Shown here: positions 4,497-11,273 of the stretch, piece after piece
Numbering within the stretch: the stretch's first letter is position 1
How the letters are laid out: every line of letters starts with the position of its first letter
Origin: a phage
Direction: 5' to 3' (one strand)
DNA: 64,000 nucleotides
NCBI GenBank assembly: GCA_017686895.1
Contig: GCA_017686895.1_4521.1
The notes under the pieces: model-generated
What the model saw: the letters and a program-made list of their open reading frames with translations, nothing else
Database searches by the model: none
What the model was told of the DNA's origin: nothing
Translations under genes and position numbers: made by a program

Positions 4497-5090
4497 ATGA
4501 ACACACTGAAGAAACTTGTTGAATTCATCCGCACTAAACTGGGTACTGCTATGGCTAAAAATCTGACTGTCGAAGAACAGTATAACGCAGCCGCAGATAA
4601 GTTGATTACCCAAATCAAAGAACTAAAAACGGCTTCTGTTAAATCTATTAATGAAGAAAAACGTATTCGCGAACTTGTTAATGAAAAGAACAAGCAAGCC
4701 GCTTCTAAGGAACGTGAAATTCGTAAGCTCCTGGCTGAAGGACAAGATGTTACCATGCATGCTAAGCTTGGTCTTCTGTATCGTCGAACTGCCGAACAAC
4801 TTAATACAAAAGCTGACGGTTATGCCGCTATGCGAATTGAAATTGCTCGTAAGGTGGTTGAACTTGATGATGCTCGTCAGAATCTGGCAATCAAACTCGA
4901 ATACATTCGTGAAACTCGAGCAGCCAATGCCCTTGGTATCTCTACGGCTGATGATGTGATTGAAATTGCTGCACTGACTAAGGTTGATATCGAAGACACT
5001 CTGACTCGTGTTGAAACGTTCAATGGCACTCCAGCCGGTGTCGAAACCACTTCTGCTGATGTACAAGAATATATTAACTCTTTGAAATAA
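4497..5090 (+). CDS. hypothetical coiled-coil protein
   Basis: ATG at 4497 within track ORF 4482..5090; heptad-rich, charged sequence. Confidence 0.5.
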
Positions 5091-5098
5091 AATAATAC

Positions 5099-5120
5099 GG
5101 AGGACTCCGGTCCTCCTTTT
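5099..5120 (+). terminator. intrinsic terminator
   Basis: GGAGGAC-TCCG-GTCCTCC then TTTT. Confidence 0.65.
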
Positions 5121-5139: not shown

Positions 5140-5736
5140 ATGCGAAACCAAAATAATGATATTGACTCAATGTTCGAAGAGTTCCGAGATAAGGTAAATC
5201 CACCTACGTCTTTAGTTGATTCATTACGATATGTTGCAACCGGACGTAAATGGTACTGGTCATCTTCTTATGAGACAACTGAATATGCAAATAACCGAAA
5301 ATCTTTATTAGCCCCAGGTATCATGATTAATGATATCGGAGCTATTGCTAAACTAGTTGCAGACCATGATATTAGATTCACTGATTTCGTTGCTCCTACG
5401 TGGTCTGTTTGTTGTTTAAACACTGAATGGGAATATATCAGCGAACGCTCTGAAGATTATTATGGTTTTAGAGATAAGCTTCTGAGGTCTAATATGTTTT
5501 ATATCGATACAGAAGTTCTAGTCGATAATAAAAAATACTACTTTACGTTAATCGTCGATTCTGAAACTATGTATGAAGGCAAGCCTTTGCTTAAGAGAGT
5601 TGATGCTTTAAGTGCTATTGATGCGCTTTATGAAACTATGGTTGTTAGTCCTAATTTCACTAACAATTTAATCCTTGAGCAATTTATTATGGAATGTAGA
5701 GAATATGTCAAAGCCAACCCTATACATGCCAAGTAA
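5140..5736 (+). CDS. hypothetical protein with EQFIMECRE motif near C-terminus
   Basis: ATG at 5140 after AAAGGAG RBS; C-terminal region carries the ExF(I/V)xECR tail shared with four downstream genes. Confidence 0.5.
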   Translation: MRNQNNDIDSMFEEFRDKVNPPTSLVDSLRYVATGRKWYWSSSYETTEYANNRKSLLAPGIMINDIGAIAKLVADHDIRFTDFVAPTWSVCCLNTEWEYISERSEDYYGFRDKLLRSNMFYIDTEVLVDNKKYYFTLIVDSETMYEGKPLLKRVDALSAIDALYETMVVSPNFTNNLILEQFIMECREYVKANPIHAK

Positions 5737-6100
5737 GCCCTGGGCGTATGAATACAAGCGTAAATTAATCCCAAATGAAGTACTATTTGGCCCTATTTTA
5801 GCTTTAGCATTTTTAATCTTTATGATTATAGGAGCCGTTTTAGATTCTAGTGAAGTTATATCGTCTGATGCAGCATTTTCATTAATGTTCGTCGCACCAC
5901 TTATTGTACCGTTTTTATTAATGCCTATTAACTGGATGGGATATTGGTACCAAGGACGTCATCACAGGGCCCGATTAAGAGAATGGAAAGTTCAGTGCGC
6001 AAAAGCCCAAGCTCAGTATGATGAAGCTGTTAAAAAGTATGAATATGAAGAAGCTATGGAATTCGTTAAGGAAATAAGATGCAAAAGCCTTAACTCTTAA
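5705..6100 (+). CDS. small membrane protein with EFVKEIRCK tail
   Basis: Two predicted TM helices (LFGPILALAFLIFMIIGAVL, FSLMFVAPLIVPFLLMPINW); start chosen at ATG 5705 (track start 5675 is TTG). Confidence 0.4.
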   Translation: MSKPTLYMPSKPWAYEYKRKLIPNEVLFGPILALAFLIFMIIGAVLDSSEVISSDAAFSLMFVAPLIVPFLLMPINWMGYWYQGRHHRARLREWKVQCAKAQAQYDEAVKKYEYEEAMEFVKEIRCKSLNS

Positions 6101-6141
6101 CCGTATGGCCTTCTCTTGGTGAGAACATTCTAATTTTTATT

Positions 6142-6438
6142 ATGAGTATTGGCATGGGATTTGCCTTTGGATTAGTTGGATTTATTATTGACGGCGTTGT
6201 GTTAGGATTTATAGGGAACACTGGTGGATTCACAGATCAATGGCAGGACTTACGGTATACCCAAGCCTTTGCATCCATCGCATCATTTTGTACTGTAGTC
6301 TATTTTTACTACAATTTTATAAACCATAACAAGAAAAATAAAAAAGTTTACGCTTCTCAAATGATTAGTTATAATGAACTCCTAGCTAGACGTGAAAATG
6401 AAACAATCGAAAACTTTATTAAGGAATGTAGAAAATGA
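6142..6438 (+). CDS. small membrane protein with ENFIKECRK tail
   Basis: Hydrophobic N-terminal half; ends ENFIKECRK. Confidence 0.5.
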   Translation: MSIGMGFAFGLVGFIIDGVVLGFIGNTGGFTDQWQDLRYTQAFASIASFCTVVYFYYNFINHNKKNKKVYASQMISYNELLARRENETIENFIKECRK

Positions 6439-6740
6439 GTAAGATTATTGAAATTAAAGTACCAGAGTTTAATGATGCCAAATCCGCTTCAGATGCAATT
6501 TATAAACTTCTGAATCAAGCTGAACGTATCGAAGAAGAAGCTACAAAGATTGCAGACCAATATGCAGTATCGTTTTCTGTAGGTGATTATGGTAGCGGTC
6601 GTACTTATTATCCTAAGGGTGAAATCGTATCCCAGTGGATGAAAGATGAAATTGAAAATAATGGCGGCGATGTTAAGCGTGAAGGTAATGGATACGTTAT
6701 TACTGAAGGTGCTTGGGTTTCATCTTCTGCGTTGTGCTAA
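6435..6740 (+). CDS. small protein, WVSSS-C tail family member 1
   Basis: Ends GAWVSSSALC; ATGA overlap with upstream gene. Confidence 0.5.
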   Translation: MSKIIEIKVPEFNDAKSASDAIYKLLNQAERIEEEATKIADQYAVSFSVGDYGSGRTYYPKGEIVSQWMKDEIENNGGDVKREGNGYVITEGAWVSSSALC

Positions 6741-6749
6741 GGAATCATT

Positions 6750-7022
6750 ATGTCTAAAGAACAAACCGAACTGGCTGAAGCTGTAGCAAAAATCTATGCA
6801 GTTATTGAGGCTGCCAAAGAAATTGCTGATAAACAAAACACAACATTCGACTTGTATCCAGCTTATGGTATGGGTGGAACGTATTATTCTCCTGGATTCT
6901 TGAAAAAAGAACTTGAGCATTATACCGAACAAGGCAATCCGAATTGGGCCACTGTCAACCAACACTCATATTACACCAGCCTCGAATCAGGTGGTTGGGT
7001 TGCATCTTCTATGGAATGCTAA
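6750..7022 (+). CDS. small protein, WVSSS-C tail family member 2
   Basis: Ends GGWVASSMEC; preceded by TAAGGAATCATTATG junction. Confidence 0.5.
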   Translation: MSKEQTELAEAVAKIYAVIEAAKEIADKQNTTFDLYPAYGMGGTYYSPGFLKKELEHYTEQGNPNWATVNQHSYYTSLESGGWVASSMEC

Positions 7023-7031
7023 GGAAATCAT

Positions 7032-7229
7032 ATGTCTCGTGAATTAGATTGTGCTGTACGTACGGCAGTAGCTGCTCTGGAAAACCTGTTCCAAATTGCA
7101 ACAGAAGAACGCGAAGAAGTTACATTATGGATTGAAGATAACGCAGGTCTGAATCTCCAGGACGCGATCTCATTATCCCACAATAGTATCACTGTTCAAG
7201 GCTGGGTATCATCTAGTTATTCTTGCTAA
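7032..7229 (+). CDS. small protein, WVSSS-C tail family member 3
   Basis: Ends QGWVSSSYSC; preceded by TAAGGAAATCATATG junction. Confidence 0.5.
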   Translation: MSRELDCAVRTAVAALENLFQIATEEREEVTLWIEDNAGLNLQDAISLSHNSITVQGWVSSSYSC

Positions 7230-7233
7230 AACA

Positions 7234-7263
7234 GTTTACAACAAGATAGGGCTATGTTATAGT
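7234..7263 (+). promoter_or_regulatory. early promoter inside a palindrome (approximate coordinates)
   Basis: GTTTAC, 18 bp spacer, TGTTATAGT; -10 flanked by ATAGGGCTA / TAGTCCTAT inverted repeat. Confidence 0.55.
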
Positions 7264-7291
7264 AGTCCTATCAAATTAAATGGAGACAACA

Positions 7292-7532
7292 ATGGTTTAT
7301 TACGAAAGTATCGGAACCGAAGTAGTTGCTAAAACTATTACTCGTGAAAAGTTTGCAAAGATATTCGATATGCGTTATAAAAAAATCTGAACACAAAGGC
7401 ATCCGATTCGAAGATGCGCACTGTACAATTTGCCCTTATAATGAAGACATAAACGGCACAATCGTTCCATTGGTAGAGGCTTCACATGACGACCTCTGGG
7501 ATGAATATAATATCGCATGTCGCGAAATTTAA
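7292..7532 (+). pseudogene. small Cys/His-containing protein gene interrupted by a frameshift at an A7 tract
   Basis: ATG 7292 with good RBS reads 31 codons into A7 run (7379..7385) then stops at 7388..7390; the +1 frame continues as track ORF 7326..7532 (SEHKGIRFEDAHCTICPYNEDINGT...). Confidence 0.4.
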
Positions 7533-7557
7533 GTAATCTAAATTCGAGGAAAATATT

Positions 7558-8514
7558 ATGATGTTAGTTATTGGTTCTCGTGCACTTCACTATCACGGTC
7601 TTATTGATTCTAGCGCTATCAAAAATAGTGATTGGGACTTTATTGCGGACCAATGTTCTTGGAATGCATTCAAAAATCAAATGATGGGTGTATATGTTCA
7701 CCAAGATAACCCTGGTGTCCAAGTTTTCAAATGTTTCCATAATGGACGCGAAACTCATTTTGAAGCATACATCGTTCCGGCTATCACTAACGTTCGCGAA
7801 CTAGTCGGTGAACTCACTCCTGAAGATTTCACGTCTTCTTATGACCTTTTAAAATACGCCAAGAAAAATTTGACTAAAGACCGTTTGAACGGGTTTTACT
7901 GGGCAACTCCTGAGATATGTCTTGCAATTAAGATGTCTCATCGTTTCAAGAAAAATAATCCATTCTTTTTAAAGACTATGAACCATATTCAGTATCTTCG
8001 TGGTAAAGGTGTTACACTGGACGATGAACTTACTGAAATTATGCTGAAACGCCAGAAAGAAACCTTGAACTATGCTCACCCAGTTCTTGACACTTCTAAA
8101 AGCGCATTCTTTAAAGATGACATCTATACGTATGACCATGATACTATTCACGAAGCCATTGCACTAACAGACCGTCCAGCGTATACATTTTATATGAAAG
8201 ATGGTTCTGAAGTCATGACCTCACGCGAGAAGTTCGAATCATTACCAGAAATGGTCAAATTAGCCGGCGTATACGAAGAATCATGTGTACTAGCGTTAGA
8301 ACGTTCTCAGATTCCTAATAACTTTGAAATCCATCCACGTGATAGTTTTATGATGGCATTAGAAAAAGTCTGTACTTCAATCACGTCAGGCTGGTTCCGT
8401 GAATACGCTTGGGAAAACTACAGCAAAGTTGTAAGTATGTACCAAAGCTTAGGACATGACGATTATGTAAAACGTTTTAAACAAAATTTCCATATGGTAA
8501 AACCTTTCAAATAA
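7558..8514 (+). CDS. hypothetical protein
   Basis: 318-aa ORF, ATG-ATG start after GAGGAAAA RBS; N-terminal IGSRALHYHG...DWDF weakly resembles a nucleotidyltransferase motif. Confidence 0.55.
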   Translation: MMLVIGSRALHYHGLIDSSAIKNSDWDFIADQCSWNAFKNQMMGVYVHQDNPGVQVFKCFHNGRETHFEAYIVPAITNVRELVGELTPEDFTSSYDLLKYAKKNLTKDRLNGFYWATPEICLAIKMSHRFKKNNPFFLKTMNHIQYLRGKGVTLDDELTEIMLKRQKETLNYAHPVLDTSKSAFFKDDIYTYDHDTIHEAIALTDRPAYTFYMKDGSEVMTSREKFESLPEMVKLAGVYEESCVLALERSQIPNNFEIHPRDSFMMALEKVCTSITSGWFREYAWENYSKVVSMYQSLGHDDYVKRFKQNFHMVKPFK

Positions 8515-8526
8515 TTTCGCAAAACT

Positions 8527-8556
8527 GTTTACACAATTATAGGACTATGTTATAGT
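8527..8556 (+). promoter_or_regulatory. early promoter inside a palindrome (approximate coordinates)
   Basis: GTTTAC, 18 bp, TGTTATAGT; flanked by ATAGGACTA / TAGTCCTAT. Confidence 0.55.
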
Positions 8557-8584
8557 AGTCCTATTAAAACATGAGGAGAATATT

Positions 8585-8890
8585 ATGAAATTAGGCGAAA
8601 CCAACCGAATTGGTCTTTTAACTATATTTGTATCACTTTTTTACGTAGCTCTTTCTGTTGCAGTATTACAAAAGGCTTACGATATGGATGGTGTTCCTGG
8701 TTTTGTATTCTTATCACCATTTTTATTATTCGTCGGGGCTTTGTTATTATATGCCACGACTAGTTTTGACCATAACGTCTGGGTTAATTATAAATGTAAA
8801 TTGTCTGAAGAAGAACACGCAGAAGCTCGTAAAAAAGCTATTGAATCTACCAATCTAGAAAATTTCATTAAAGAATGTCGAGGAAAATAA
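8585..8890 (+). CDS. small membrane protein with ENFIKECRGK tail
   Basis: Two hydrophobic segments; C-terminal LENFIKECRGK. Confidence 0.5.
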   Translation: MKLGETNRIGLLTIFVSLFYVALSVAVLQKAYDMDGVPGFVFLSPFLLFVGALLLYATTSFDHNVWVNYKCKLSEEEHAEARKKAIESTNLENFIKECRGK

Positions 8891-8891
8891 T

Positions 8892-9578
8892 ATGAATAGT
8901 TCTAAAGTGTTTAATAGTCAAGCTCGTGCAGTAGGTGGTTTTGCTCATAACGTACAAAATGACCAAATCAAAAATGAACCAATGTTCTTTAACTGTGATT
9001 TGAGTTTTGCTTGGGATAACGGCGGTCCTATTACTCGTAGCTTTATTGCCAATCTCCCAATTGATTGGACTAATCAACATGTTGTATTTGATTCTCGGGT
9101 TCATATGCTGATGCCTGGTTGGTATCCTGCTATTCCTGGATATCACCATGACGATGTTCCTCGCCCTGATATTCCAGTCGGCCAACACTTTATTACTGCA
9201 GGACAACCTGACTATGATAACCCTCGTTACCATTCTGAACATATTCTTGGTCTTGTTAACGCTGACGTGTGTCCTACTCATTTTGCAACAGGAACTGCAG
9301 AGTTCAGTCAGATTCCTGATGGCGAACTTATCTATCGCCAATGGCACAAAGAAGTCCTCGAAAAAATTGAAAAAGGTGAACTAGAGAAATGGGAAGCTCC
9401 AGACCGTACTCTTCTTCAGTTTGATTGGCAAACATGGCACACTGGTTCTCGTGCAATTAGTAATGGATGGCGTTGGTTCGGACGTGTATCTCGTAATACA
9501 GACCGAGTTAAAAAGATTACCAATGAAATTCGTGTCAATGCCCAAGTTTATCTGGAATTCCCTATGGAAGGCTGGTAA
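8892..9578 (+). CDS. putative Fe(II)/2-oxoglutarate-dependent oxygenase-like protein
   Basis: Candidate HxD (GYHHDD), distal His (WHTG) and RxS (RVS) in the spacing typical of the 2OG oxygenase fold; motif-level only. Confidence 0.4.
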   Translation: MNSSKVFNSQARAVGGFAHNVQNDQIKNEPMFFNCDLSFAWDNGGPITRSFIANLPIDWTNQHVVFDSRVHMLMPGWYPAIPGYHHDDVPRPDIPVGQHFITAGQPDYDNPRYHSEHILGLVNADVCPTHFATGTAEFSQIPDGELIYRQWHKEVLEKIEKGELEKWEAPDRTLLQFDWQTWHTGSRAISNGWRWFGRVSRNTDRVKKITNEIRVNAQVYLEFPMEGW

Positions 9579-10069
9579 TGATTAACAAAATATATTGGTC
9601 TAATATTGACGACGGCAATGAAGGTATTTCATACTATTCAGTAGATTGGACAGGATGTCCATCCTACTTAGTGAAACGTATTTGTCAAGAATTTAAAATC
9701 GACCAGCCAGCAGGTATTATCGTGAACAGATACATTAATGGATATCAACCTATCGATGAAGTAATACGAACAACTCAAGCTGATCTTGAAAAGTTTTTCA
9801 ATAAGTGTCAATGGATAACAGGATGGATTATATTTGTACCGTCGGTATGGTTTTTTAGTACTAAAGTAAGTGCCTTTGCCATACCAGATATTATCGCTAT
9901 CTTATTAGCATCTACTATCGTAAGTATTATTGGTGGTATTATTGGTGGAGGTACTATAGGCATCATTATTAATCTTGTTAAAAGTAGTTTACAGGAACGT
10001 AAAGACAAGATAAAGGCCAAGAATAATGAAGTTGAACGTTTTATTACCGAATGCAGGAATTTGAGATGA
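9578..10069 (+). CDS. membrane protein with ERFITECRNLR tail
   Basis: TAATG overlap start; Gly/Ile-rich TM segments; conserved tail. Confidence 0.5.
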   Translation: MINKIYWSNIDDGNEGISYYSVDWTGCPSYLVKRICQEFKIDQPAGIIVNRYINGYQPIDEVIRTTQADLEKFFNKCQWITGWIIFVPSVWFFSTKVSAFAIPDIIAILLASTIVSIIGGIIGGGTIGIIINLVKSSLQERKDKIKAKNNEVERFITECRNLR

Positions 10070-10302
10070 GTATAGCAATTTACATTAAATCAGAATCATG
10101 TGATAGTTATCTGTACACATATGATAAAGATGTGTCAGAAGAAAAAATCAAAGACGATCTTAATATGGACCTTGATTTGTTCAGTCCTATTGCAGATTAC
10201 AAACTTGCTGTCTCTAATAGTGAAAGTCCATCTAAAGAAACGCGTATTGAAGAATTTATGTCCGAATTAATGGCCAAATCATGGGACCGAGATGATGAGT
10301 AA
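10066..10302 (+). CDS. hypothetical acidic protein
   Basis: ATG 10066 overlapping upstream stop (ATGA). Confidence 0.45.
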   Translation: MSIAIYIKSESCDSYLYTYDKDVSEEKIKDDLNMDLDLFSPIADYKLAVSNSESPSKETRIEEFMSELMAKSWDRDDE

Positions 10303-10750
10303 GAAAAATAAAGTGAAAGAACTATCAGCCGGTATTATCTTCATGACAAAAGATAAAGAATTATTCATGGGTCGTGTAACTGGTTCTCGTCCTAAAGGTG
10401 CATTAGCTCATCGGTGGGATATTCCTAAAGGCCGTGTCGAACCTGGCGAATCTCCTATCGAAGCCGCTATTCGTGAATGCGAAGAAGAAACTGGGTTTAC
10501 ACAATATGACCCTGCCTTCCTGAAAGACCTAGGTGAACATCATTACTCAGACAATAAGAATATTCATCTGTTCCTATATACCATCCCTGTAGAGCACGAG
10601 CAATTCAGAAACAGTGTTTGTAATTCATATCATACATTCCCGGACGGACGACAGATTCCTGAATTTGATGCATTCGCTCTAATTAAACCTTCTCAATGGG
10701 AATATGTAATGGGCAAATCGTTATATAAGGTGCTCACTACCCTCCTATAA
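10292..10750 (+). CDS. nudE: Nudix hydrolase
   Basis: Nudix box GRVEPGESPIEAAIRECEEETGF; sits immediately upstream of lysozyme e. Confidence 0.85.
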   Translation: MMSKKNKVKELSAGIIFMTKDKELFMGRVTGSRPKGALAHRWDIPKGRVEPGESPIEAAIRECEEETGFTQYDPAFLKDLGEHHYSDNKNIHLFLYTIPVEHEQFRNSVCNSYHTFPDGRQIPEFDAFALIKPSQWEYVMGKSLYKVLTTLL

Positions 10751-10784
10751 GTAATAAATACCTCCTATAAACGTGGGAGGTATT

Positions 10785-11273
10785 ATGAATATATTTGAAA
10801 TGCTTCGTAATGACGAAGGTCTTAGACTGACTTTATACAAAGACACTGAAGGCTTTTGGACGATTGGTATAGGCCATTTAGTAACAAAGAACCCGTCTTT
10901 AGCCGTAGCTAAAGCTGAACTTGACAGAATGATCGGTCGTAAATGCAACGGTACAATTACCCTTGATGAGGCTGAAAAGCTATTTAATGAAGACGTTGAT
11001 AAAGCCGTTCGCGGAATCTTGGGTAATGCTAAACTTAAACCGGTATATGATTCTTTAGATGCGGTTCGTCGATGTGCATTGGTCAATATGGTCTTCCAAA
11101 TGGGTGTAGCAGGCGTTGCTGGTTTTACTAATTCTCTTCGTATGCTTCAACAGAAACGTTGGGATGAAGCGGCAGTAAATCTAGCTCAATCTAAATGGTA
11201 TCGTCAGACACCTAATCGCGCGAAACGCGTAATCTCAACATTTAAAACAGGAACTTGGAAAGCGTATATATGA
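10785..11273 (+). CDS. e: lysozyme (endolysin)
   Basis: [31 protein letters not shown]... nearly colinear with T4 lysozyme as I recall it; start at ATG 10785 after GGGAGG RBS. Confidence 0.95.

Follow-up and report, generated by a model that had tools for sequence, protein, structure and literature searches.

The window analysed here is a stretch of 64,000 nucleotides of phage DNA (contig GCA_017686895.1_4521.1 of assembly GCA_017686895.1) in which five genes encode proteins sharing a short peptide at or near the C-terminus. This tail has the consensus hydrophobic-x-x-F-[IV]-x-x-C-[RK] and is a real, non-random motif which is conserved at the peptide level on largely unrelated early proteins of T4-type phages. 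It may well be a short cytoplasmic amphipathic helix by which these proteins dock onto a common partner. The region shares 97.6% identity with Shigella phage Shf125875, an RB69-like T4-type phage (Mosigvirus, Straboviridae), and following the annotation of that record the carriers of the tail are named e.5, e.4, e.3, RB69ORF133c (in the following ORF133c) and e.2. They are located upstream of nudE (10292-10750), the lysozyme gene e (10773-11273) and denV in a cluster of co-directional, overlapping or abutting genes.

An earlier note on this DNA had listed the open reading frames (ORFs) ending at 5736, 6100, 6438, 8890 and 10069 with their terminal peptides, and all of these are present as claimed. 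It had also called four of the proteins membrane proteins, which agrees with our finding of one or two strongly hydrophobic stretches in each of e.4, e.3, ORF133c and e.2 and none in e.5. One of the peptides has to be read differently. In e.4 the residues RCK are not a permuted form of the Cys-Arg pair of the other tails: EFVKEIRCK aligns without a gap as F-V-K-E-I-R, with isoleucine replacing cysteine. The e.4 orthologues of other genera (FIKEVR, FVMEMR, FLKEMR, FIKNVR and FVKEVR) likewise have a hydrophobic residue at the Cys position. Since the e.4 codons AGA TGC hold the ancestral start ATG of e.3 (6079-6081), the cysteine following the arginine is a by-product of the gene overlap. After this ancestral start the window has the nonsense codon TAA (6091-6093) where Shf125875 has CAA, a change that is synonymous in the e.4 frame, and e.3 of the window phage is therefore either N-terminally truncated (98 residues, from 6142) or inactive. 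We also considered ORF135c (7326-7532, ending DEYNIACREI) as a sixth carrier and rejected it; its homologues end in YCYEI or DYVAEI and it did not score with the tail model described below.

The doubt whether such a motif might be frequent by chance in AT-rich phage proteomes could be settled for the window and for a complete genome. The strict form E.F[IV].ECR has four matches in the six frames of the window, all in tails of the carriers, whereas 5e-4 matches are expected from the residue frequencies of the window in its 23,350 plus-strand ORF residues. For the loose form [FW][IVL]xxC[RK] within the last 21 residues 0.07 matches are expected and four were observed, a number that was reached in none of 20,000 shuffles. 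We then scored the ORFs with a hidden Markov model (HMM) of 14 columns, for which 30 different tails from other phages were used. In the window the four Cys-containing tails scored 14.7-21.1 bits and the next best ORF 4.5 bits. In the complete Mosigvirus genome TH58 (170,748 bp, 2,519 six-frame ORFs) the same four genes alone were recovered, again with 14.7-21.1 bits, the next best ORF having 6.7 bits, and the four occurrences of the strict motif in this genome are all at the ends of the same genes. Among all fetched loci 60 of 1,791 ORFs on the coding strand reached at least 8 bits, compared with none of 2,432 on the other strand, and every one of the 60 matches is no more than 25 residues away from the C-terminus.

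It is the peptide and not the DNA that is conserved. The synonymous differences between the tails which the earlier note had pointed out are borne out by 31 different DNA versions collected from the window and from other loci, and at the conserved residues all synonymous codon families are in use. Phenylalanine is encoded by TTT (23 versions) and TTC (6), arginine by AGA, AGG, CGT, CGA and CGC, and the hydrophobic residue at position -3 by 14 different codons. Cysteine is encoded by TGT in 16 and TGC in 15 versions; the presence of cysteine in this column is circular because the selection pattern demanded it. Glu or Asp is found at -2 in 16 of the 31 versions and at +3 also in 16, and Glu directly before the cysteine in 13 only. 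An independently made alignment of 42 sequences of the e.5 family has five invariant columns, and three of these (F182, C186 and R187) belong to the tail, the others being P59 and F83.

The tail does not show the conservation of a nucleotide-level repeat, be it a promoter, an early-promoter stem–loop cassette or a recombination site. We therefore regard it as most improbable that the conserved element is the DNA itself, acting for instance as a ribosome-binding or translational-coupling region, as a promoter or as a junction for the recombinational shuffling of cassettes. Such an element would account for the fact that every tail of the window ends 0-10 nucleotides before the next start codon, that purine-rich runs (AAGGAA, CGAGGAAA, AGGAAT) are found inside or just after the tails and that the Cys codon of e.4 coincides with the start of e.3. 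The codon usage given above, with free synonymous variation including AGR versus CGN for arginine, largely refutes it. Moreover, in other phages 5-25 codons, or in VR26 a gap of 68 nucleotides (locus L010, 4338 to 4406), separate the tail from the next gene, and an overlap with the ribosome-binding site therefore cannot explain the conservation. As its cause, a start codon contained in GAA-TGY or an overlapping Shine-Dalgarno sequence holds at the e.4/e.3 junction only. Promoter-like sites (4427, 7235 and 8528) and the hairpin upstream of e.5 are located away from the tails, and the HMM matches are confined to a single strand and a single frame, with none in other frames or on the other strand of the window, the fetched loci and TH58.

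The tail is not confined to the window phage. As the earlier note had proposed to look for it in other T4-type genomes, it is of interest that it recurs in T4 and in at least ten further genera of the Straboviridae; we found it in Mosigvirus, Dhakavirus, Gaprivervirus, Kanagawavirus, Moonvirus, Marfavirus, Jiaodavirus, Winklervirus, Biquartavirus and Pseudotevenvirus (for example in phages JS98, VR26, Kosakonia 305, Entb_45, R3_1, KP185, X20, Aeromonas phage 31 and Margaery) and on several metagenomic contigs. A scan of IMG/VR with e.5 gave six loci only. In T4 the tails read LEKFVKECREYV in e.5, KEFVIDCRKIK in e.3 and MKFVKESR in e.4. The T4 e.2 protein as annotated (102 residues) is without the second membrane segment and the tail. 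Between e.2 and nudE, however, the C-terminal part of e.2 is open in another frame and ends with NNFITECRKLK (locus L002, 4473-4634, minus strand), and other Tequatroviruses (L005-L007) have an intact e.2 of 162 residues. The gene is therefore frameshifted or split in the T4 reference.

It has been shown by time-resolved omics of T4 infection that e.2-e.6 are early transcripts, and the proteins were classed as early (e.4 and e.5), middle (e.2 and e.6) and late (e.3) (PMC9697503, supplementary files 4 and 6). The proteins are thus made in T4, and an absence of the carriers from infected cells, which would have spoken against the importance of the tail, does not apply: all of T4 e.2-e.6 were detected as proteins (PMC9697503 supplements). 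Apart from these omics tables nothing relevant was found on the e.x genes, on a shared motif or on a phage PspA, and we found no previous description of the tail in the searchable literature.

How far the carriers are related apart from the tail was examined with hhalign after removal of the tail columns, using small family alignments of 1-9 sequences. Without the tail e.3 and e.4 are still similar (E 5e-6, reversed control 0.03) and are therefore distant full-length paralogues. All other pairs among e.2, ORF133c, e.5 and a small soluble family of 92-108 residues remained at the level of the control. This small family is found in other genera (L009 6091-6369, L012 6780-7067, L015 5634-5918 and L026 6881-7189 are examples). 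When e.5 of the window was compared by BLASTP with the proteins at the e.5 position in Dhakavirus and Gaprivervirus, the alignment comprised the tail only (7-10% coverage, 58-69% identity). The tail is thus carried by at least five types of body, namely e.5-type soluble proteins, e.3/e.4-type membrane proteins, ORF133c-type membrane proteins, e.2, in which the membrane plan is combined with an additional unrelated N-terminal domain, and the small soluble proteins. The five carriers of the window fall into five separate PHROG families, all of function unknown. Scans against Pfam and NCBIfam gave nothing above threshold; for e.4, e.3, ORF133c and e.2 there were unrelated sub-threshold matches only and none to PspB, PspC or LiaI. 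Precomputed Pfam labels exist for single families (PF26876 for e.5), and none for the shared motif.

The statement that the genes are otherwise unrelated therefore holds for most of the bodies as far as similarity can be detected, but not for the paralogues e.3 and e.4, and it has to be qualified further by the common architecture of the four membrane proteins. This raises the question whether the tail is simply a relic of common descent, the slowest-evolving end of proteins derived from one ancestral small protein, needed for each protein's own folding or self-association and not for a shared partner. The similarity of e.3 and e.4 outside the tail, the shared plan of the four membrane carriers (a pair of hydrophobic stretches followed by a charged segment and then by the tail), the weak match of ORF133c to the PHROG of e.2 and the tandem arrangement of the genes would all be expected on this assumption. 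It is nevertheless rather unlikely in our view, as neither the e.5-type proteins (about 200-300 residues, no membrane segment) nor the small soluble family resemble the membrane proteins when compared without the tail, e.2 carries an unrelated N-terminal domain, and the tail is better conserved than any body.

The membrane carriers consist of one or two strongly hydrophobic stretches followed by 28-52 charged residues and the tail. After the last hydrophobic stretch there are 8-11 Lys and Arg residues, and by the positive-inside rule the tail is therefore predicted to be cytoplasmic. With the spacing -3, 0, +1 and +4 the hydrophobic residue, the phenylalanine, the isoleucine or valine and the cysteine would lie on one face of a helix with the arginine beside it. 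The helical hydrophobic moment of the tails is 1.2-2.3 and their mean Kyte-Doolittle hydropathy about -1. In an AlphaFold2 (AF2) model of e.5 (predicted local distance difference test, pLDDT, 51), calculated from the 42-sequence alignment, the tail is drawn as a helix with low confidence. From these features we infer that the tail is helical and that it binds a partner, for which e.6, the product of the gene upstream of e.5, is the candidate discussed below. With its hydrophobic residue, Phe, Ile/Val and Cys, and with the Arg next to them, the conserved side of the helix would fit into a groove on this partner. As the conserved part of the tail comprises 9-10 residues, or about 2.5 turns, after a charged linker, a short docking helix fits better than a coiled coil.

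An amphipathic helix near the C-terminus could also lie in the plane of the membrane and hold the soluble carriers at the inner membrane in the manner of MinD or FtsA, and the soluble carriers are indeed encoded among membrane proteins. We give this little credence. A membrane-targeting helix of the MinD/FtsA type would be expected to be hydrophobic and net-basic and to lack conserved acidic residues, whereas the tail is too polar and often acidic for a lipid-binding helix to fit as well, with its hydropathy near -1 and Glu or Asp frequent at -2 and +3. There are only four conserved hydrophobic positions, a conserved Cys and Arg are not expected for lipid binding, and the membrane carriers are anchored already.

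The earlier note had suggested a tag for sorting, interaction or processing. Interaction fits best in our judgement, and the two other functions are disfavoured. Processing would mean that the tail is recognized by ClpXP, FtsH or Tsp or is cut by the T4 prohead protease at I-x-E. The T4 prohead protease follows the cleavage rule I/L-x-E, and the leader of the T4 internal proteins has the consensus MKTYQEFIAE. The F-I-x-E of the tail resembles both, and the position of the tail close to the C-terminus would also suit a processing signal. We consider such a signal improbable because the required Glu at +3 occurs in less than half of the versions and the residues at the end are variable. The motif is followed by 0-25 variable, mostly basic or polar residues with K, R, N, S, G or others as the last one, so that there is no fixed C-terminal end, unlike in ssrA-type tags, ClpX C-motifs and the tags recognized by Tsp/Prc; with this variable distance a terminal degron fits less well. 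With the tail HMM no leader of the internal proteins in the window reached 1.3 bits, and the four membrane carriers are unlikely to be packaged into heads. Sorting is disfavoured because two carrier families are without a membrane segment and the membrane carriers possess their own transmembrane hairpins.

Three known systems come closest to the tail, and by testable features it belongs to none of them. The first is the capsid targeting sequence (CTS), which serves as an address tag of the T4 internal proteins (PMC3012670). As in IPI, IPII and IPIII, a peptide of about ten residues is common to otherwise unrelated proteins which are encoded in the same hyperplastic region of T4-type genomes near gene e, and F-I-x-E is found in both. 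The CTS, however, stands at the N-terminus, from which the prohead protease cuts it off, and steers soluble cargo into the scaffolding core, whereas the tail is C-terminal in all 60 HMM matches, contains the conserved Cys-Arg and is mostly found on membrane proteins. The hydrophobic stretches in four of the five carriers argue against packaging into the head. The tail as a CTS or prohead-protease site was therefore rejected, F-I-x-E being the only feature in common and the leaders of the internal proteins in the window giving no HMM score above the value stated. The window itself contains two internal-protein-like genes at about 11270 and about 12031 which start with a capsid-targeting leader (MKTYQEFITE in the latter).

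The second are the anchors of PspA-family proteins, in which small inner-membrane proteins recruit a long helical-hairpin protein, encoded beside them, by their cytoplasmic parts, as in LiaI-LiaH of Bacillus subtilis and PspB/PspC-PspA of enterobacteria (PMC9239133). The membrane carriers resemble these anchors: they are small, have two hydrophobic stretches and a tail predicted to be cytoplasmic, and their genes stand beside that of a putative hairpin protein, e.6. They differ from them since e.6 has no PspA_IM30 match and the carriers no match to PspB, PspC or LiaI, and since soluble proteins carry the tail too. In the third system, C-terminal tails bind to a hub, as do the sliding-clamp-binding tails of T4 gp43, gp33 and gp55 and the C-terminal tail of SSB. 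Here, too, several unrelated proteins have the same short end peptide, by which all of them bind to a single groove of their hub, as we propose for the carriers. The tail has another sequence, its carriers are membrane-bound, and in some of them further residues follow the motif.

The candidate hub e.6, present in 1,110 phage records, shows a much higher conservation than the genes around it. The order e.6, e.5 and then e.4/e.3-type membrane proteins is found in the window, T4, VR26, JS98, Kosakonia 305, Moon, R3_1, X20 and KP185. We retrieved 11 loci by e.6 alone. In seven of these the gene beside e.6 has a tail with at least 6 bits. The other four have a recognisable weaker tail, seen by eye in L021, L022 and L023 and present in a diverged extended form in L017. 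In L022 and L023 it reads AEFVNFCKEK or QEFVNFCKEK, in Aeromonas phage AS-yj SFINYCIV, the Arg being lost, and in Serratia phage 92A1 IIDEARKRVLGDKY..PE.MYT. Citrobacter phage Margaery has the usual and the extended form in one protein (MEKFIHSCKKNVLEKYDPALTYT). In the e.6-free locus of Aeromonas phage 31 (L013) no tail was found.

Two of these loci deserve a separate remark. In Serratia phage 92A1 three adjacent genes after e.6 (L017, 9363-10600) share the tail (A/S)R(K/L)RVL(G/N)(D/E)KYxP(E/D)(I/M)MYT, and the protein at the e.5 position of Margaery (L025, 4666-5571) ends with MEKFIHSCKKNVLEKYDPALTYTKI, in which the usual tail is joined to an extension of the 92A1 type. The idea that phage 92A1 has a different tail which co-varied with its diverged e.6 is weakened by this fusion of both forms.

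The AF2 model of e.6 (pLDDT 74.7) contains helices at 3-15, 25-80, 86-145, 151-160, 166-172 and 186-196. The second and third of these form a long hairpin, which is preceded by the N-terminal helix and followed by the short helices of the C-terminal part. According to this model e.6 belongs to the fold class of long helical hairpins, as they occur in membrane-shaping proteins. A Foldseek search of the PDB with the model placed Vipp1 on ranks 1-7, followed by archaeal CdvB2, as weak matches (best E 5e-3). The assignment of e.6 to the PspA/Vipp1 sequence family, however, found no support in any sequence comparison: Pfam gave no match for seven e.6 homologues at E up to 10, NCBIfam gave nothing for e.6, a profile of 57 e.6 sequences did not detect Vipp1 or PspA among the PDB sequences, and hhalign against a provisional sequence of E. 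coli PspA gave a probability of 1.2%.

Taking the evidence together we favour e.6 as the partner of the tail, tentatively and in the awareness that this is doubtful. The common tail would bring the e.5-type proteins, the small soluble proteins and the two-transmembrane proteins of the inner membrane to one partner. By way of the membrane-anchored carriers e.6 would be held at the inner membrane, with soluble e.5 as a further binder of e.6 or a competitor for it. As e.6 with a tailed e.5 is the most widespread arrangement, this pair is probably ancestral, and the membrane proteins of the enterobacterial Tevenvirinae may then have acquired or retained the same handle. Going one step further, e.6 could be a viral counterpart of PspA/Vipp1 (ESCRT-III-like) and the tail its adaptor peptide on inner-membrane proteins and e.5, the whole forming a membrane-remodelling or repair module of early infection; we regard this as a rather remote extension of the docking proposal.

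Several points weigh against docking in general or against e.6 as the partner. The adjacency of e.6 may merely reflect conserved gene order in a conservative part of the genome, and the e.5 model, from which the structural setting of the tail would be read, is poor. In the e.4 lineage the cysteine is replaced by Ile, Val, Met or Ser and in phage AS-yj the arginine is lost, so that there is no single residue which all carriers require. A host protein is an equally conceivable partner, and so are the tails themselves. In the latter case the tails would bind each other in a small helical bundle, possibly with a metal ion shared by the cysteines, and would assemble the different carriers into a hetero-oligomer on the membrane that needs no hub from outside. 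In favour of this, each genome has four to six carriers whose overlapping genes are expressed together, one face of the tail is amphipathic, and its Cys is near-invariant in most families. Even so we think this arrangement unlikely, because about 2.5 helical turns are short for a stable bundle, a single tailed protein stands beside e.6 in Aeromonas phage 31 (L016), in a metagenome-assembled genome (L019) and in Margaery (L025), and the e.4 lineage is without the Cys.

The genes e.2-e.6 are among the many conserved early genes of T4 which have no known function although T4 is very well studied. Through the tail at least five gene families become members of one putative interaction network, and its conserved residues (Phe, Ile/Val, Cys and Arg) are those to be mutated, by which anonymous ORFs become the subject of a testable hypothesis. 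If e.6 is the partner and is PspA/Vipp1-like, the system would be a phage-encoded system of membrane maintenance, and with a host protein as the partner, the tail would be the mark of a family of host-takeover factors. The tail is also a practical marker for the annotation of the hyperplastic region.

Table 1. Features of the tail-bearing gene cluster and its surroundings (positions in the window)
Feature	Position	Strand	Remarks
e.6 homologue	4497-5090	+	197 residues; directly upstream of e.5; candidate partner
GC-rich hairpin followed by T run	5099-5116	+	between e.6 and e.5; terminator- or attenuator-like
e.5 homologue	5140-5736	+	soluble, 198 residues; phrog_2607; no hydrophobic stretch
e.5 tail L-E-Q-F-I-M-E-C-R	5674-5700	+	11 further residues, overlapping the e.4 start
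e.4 homologue	5705-6100	+	131 residues, two hydrophobic stretches; phrog_2604
e.4 variant tail A-M-E-F-V-K-E-I-R	6053-6079	+	Ile in the Cys position
e.3 homologue	6142-6438	+	98 residues; phrog_2330, profile positions 22-122 only
e.3 tail I-E-N-F-I-K-E-C-R	6406-6432	+	stop codon overlaps the ATG of the next gene
RB69ORF133c homologue	8585-8890	+	101 residues, two hydrophobic stretches; phrog_9798, weak second match phrog_2203 (e.2 family)
ORF133c tail L-E-N-F-I-K-E-C-R	8855-8881	+	
e.2 homologue	9578-10069	+	163 residues: N-terminal soluble domain, two hydrophobic stretches, tail; phrog_2203
e.2 tail V-E-R-F-I-T-E-C-R	10031-10057	+	

The cluster contains further genes which are of interest in their own right. 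The RB69ORF132c homologue (8892-9578, 228 residues) has an enzyme-like look with the motifs PGYHHDDVPRP and WHTGS. Its identity is 75-100% across phages of E. coli, Klebsiella, Aeromonas and Stenotrophomonas and about 30% in phages of Mycobacterium, Gordonia and Bacillus; Pfam and NCBIfam scans of this protein gave no match. In the RB69ORF135c homologue (7280-7532) a poly-A run at about 7379-7385 has seven A, compared with six in Shf125875, and this additional A splits the gene between two frames; a frameshift mutation, a slippery run and an error of sequencing are the possible explanations.

Finally, the cluster has a second and distinct common C-terminal motif. Three small tandem genes (6435-6740, 6750-7022 and 7032-7229) of the RB69ORF139c, 137c and 136c types all end with G-x-W-V-S-S-S-x-x-C directly before the stop codon, that is with a terminal Cys. 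This family is present in three to five copies in VR26, JS98, Kosakonia 305, Moon, R3_1, X20 and metagenomic loci, where its members end with WVSSSxEC, WxSSSC or WYSSSMxxC.

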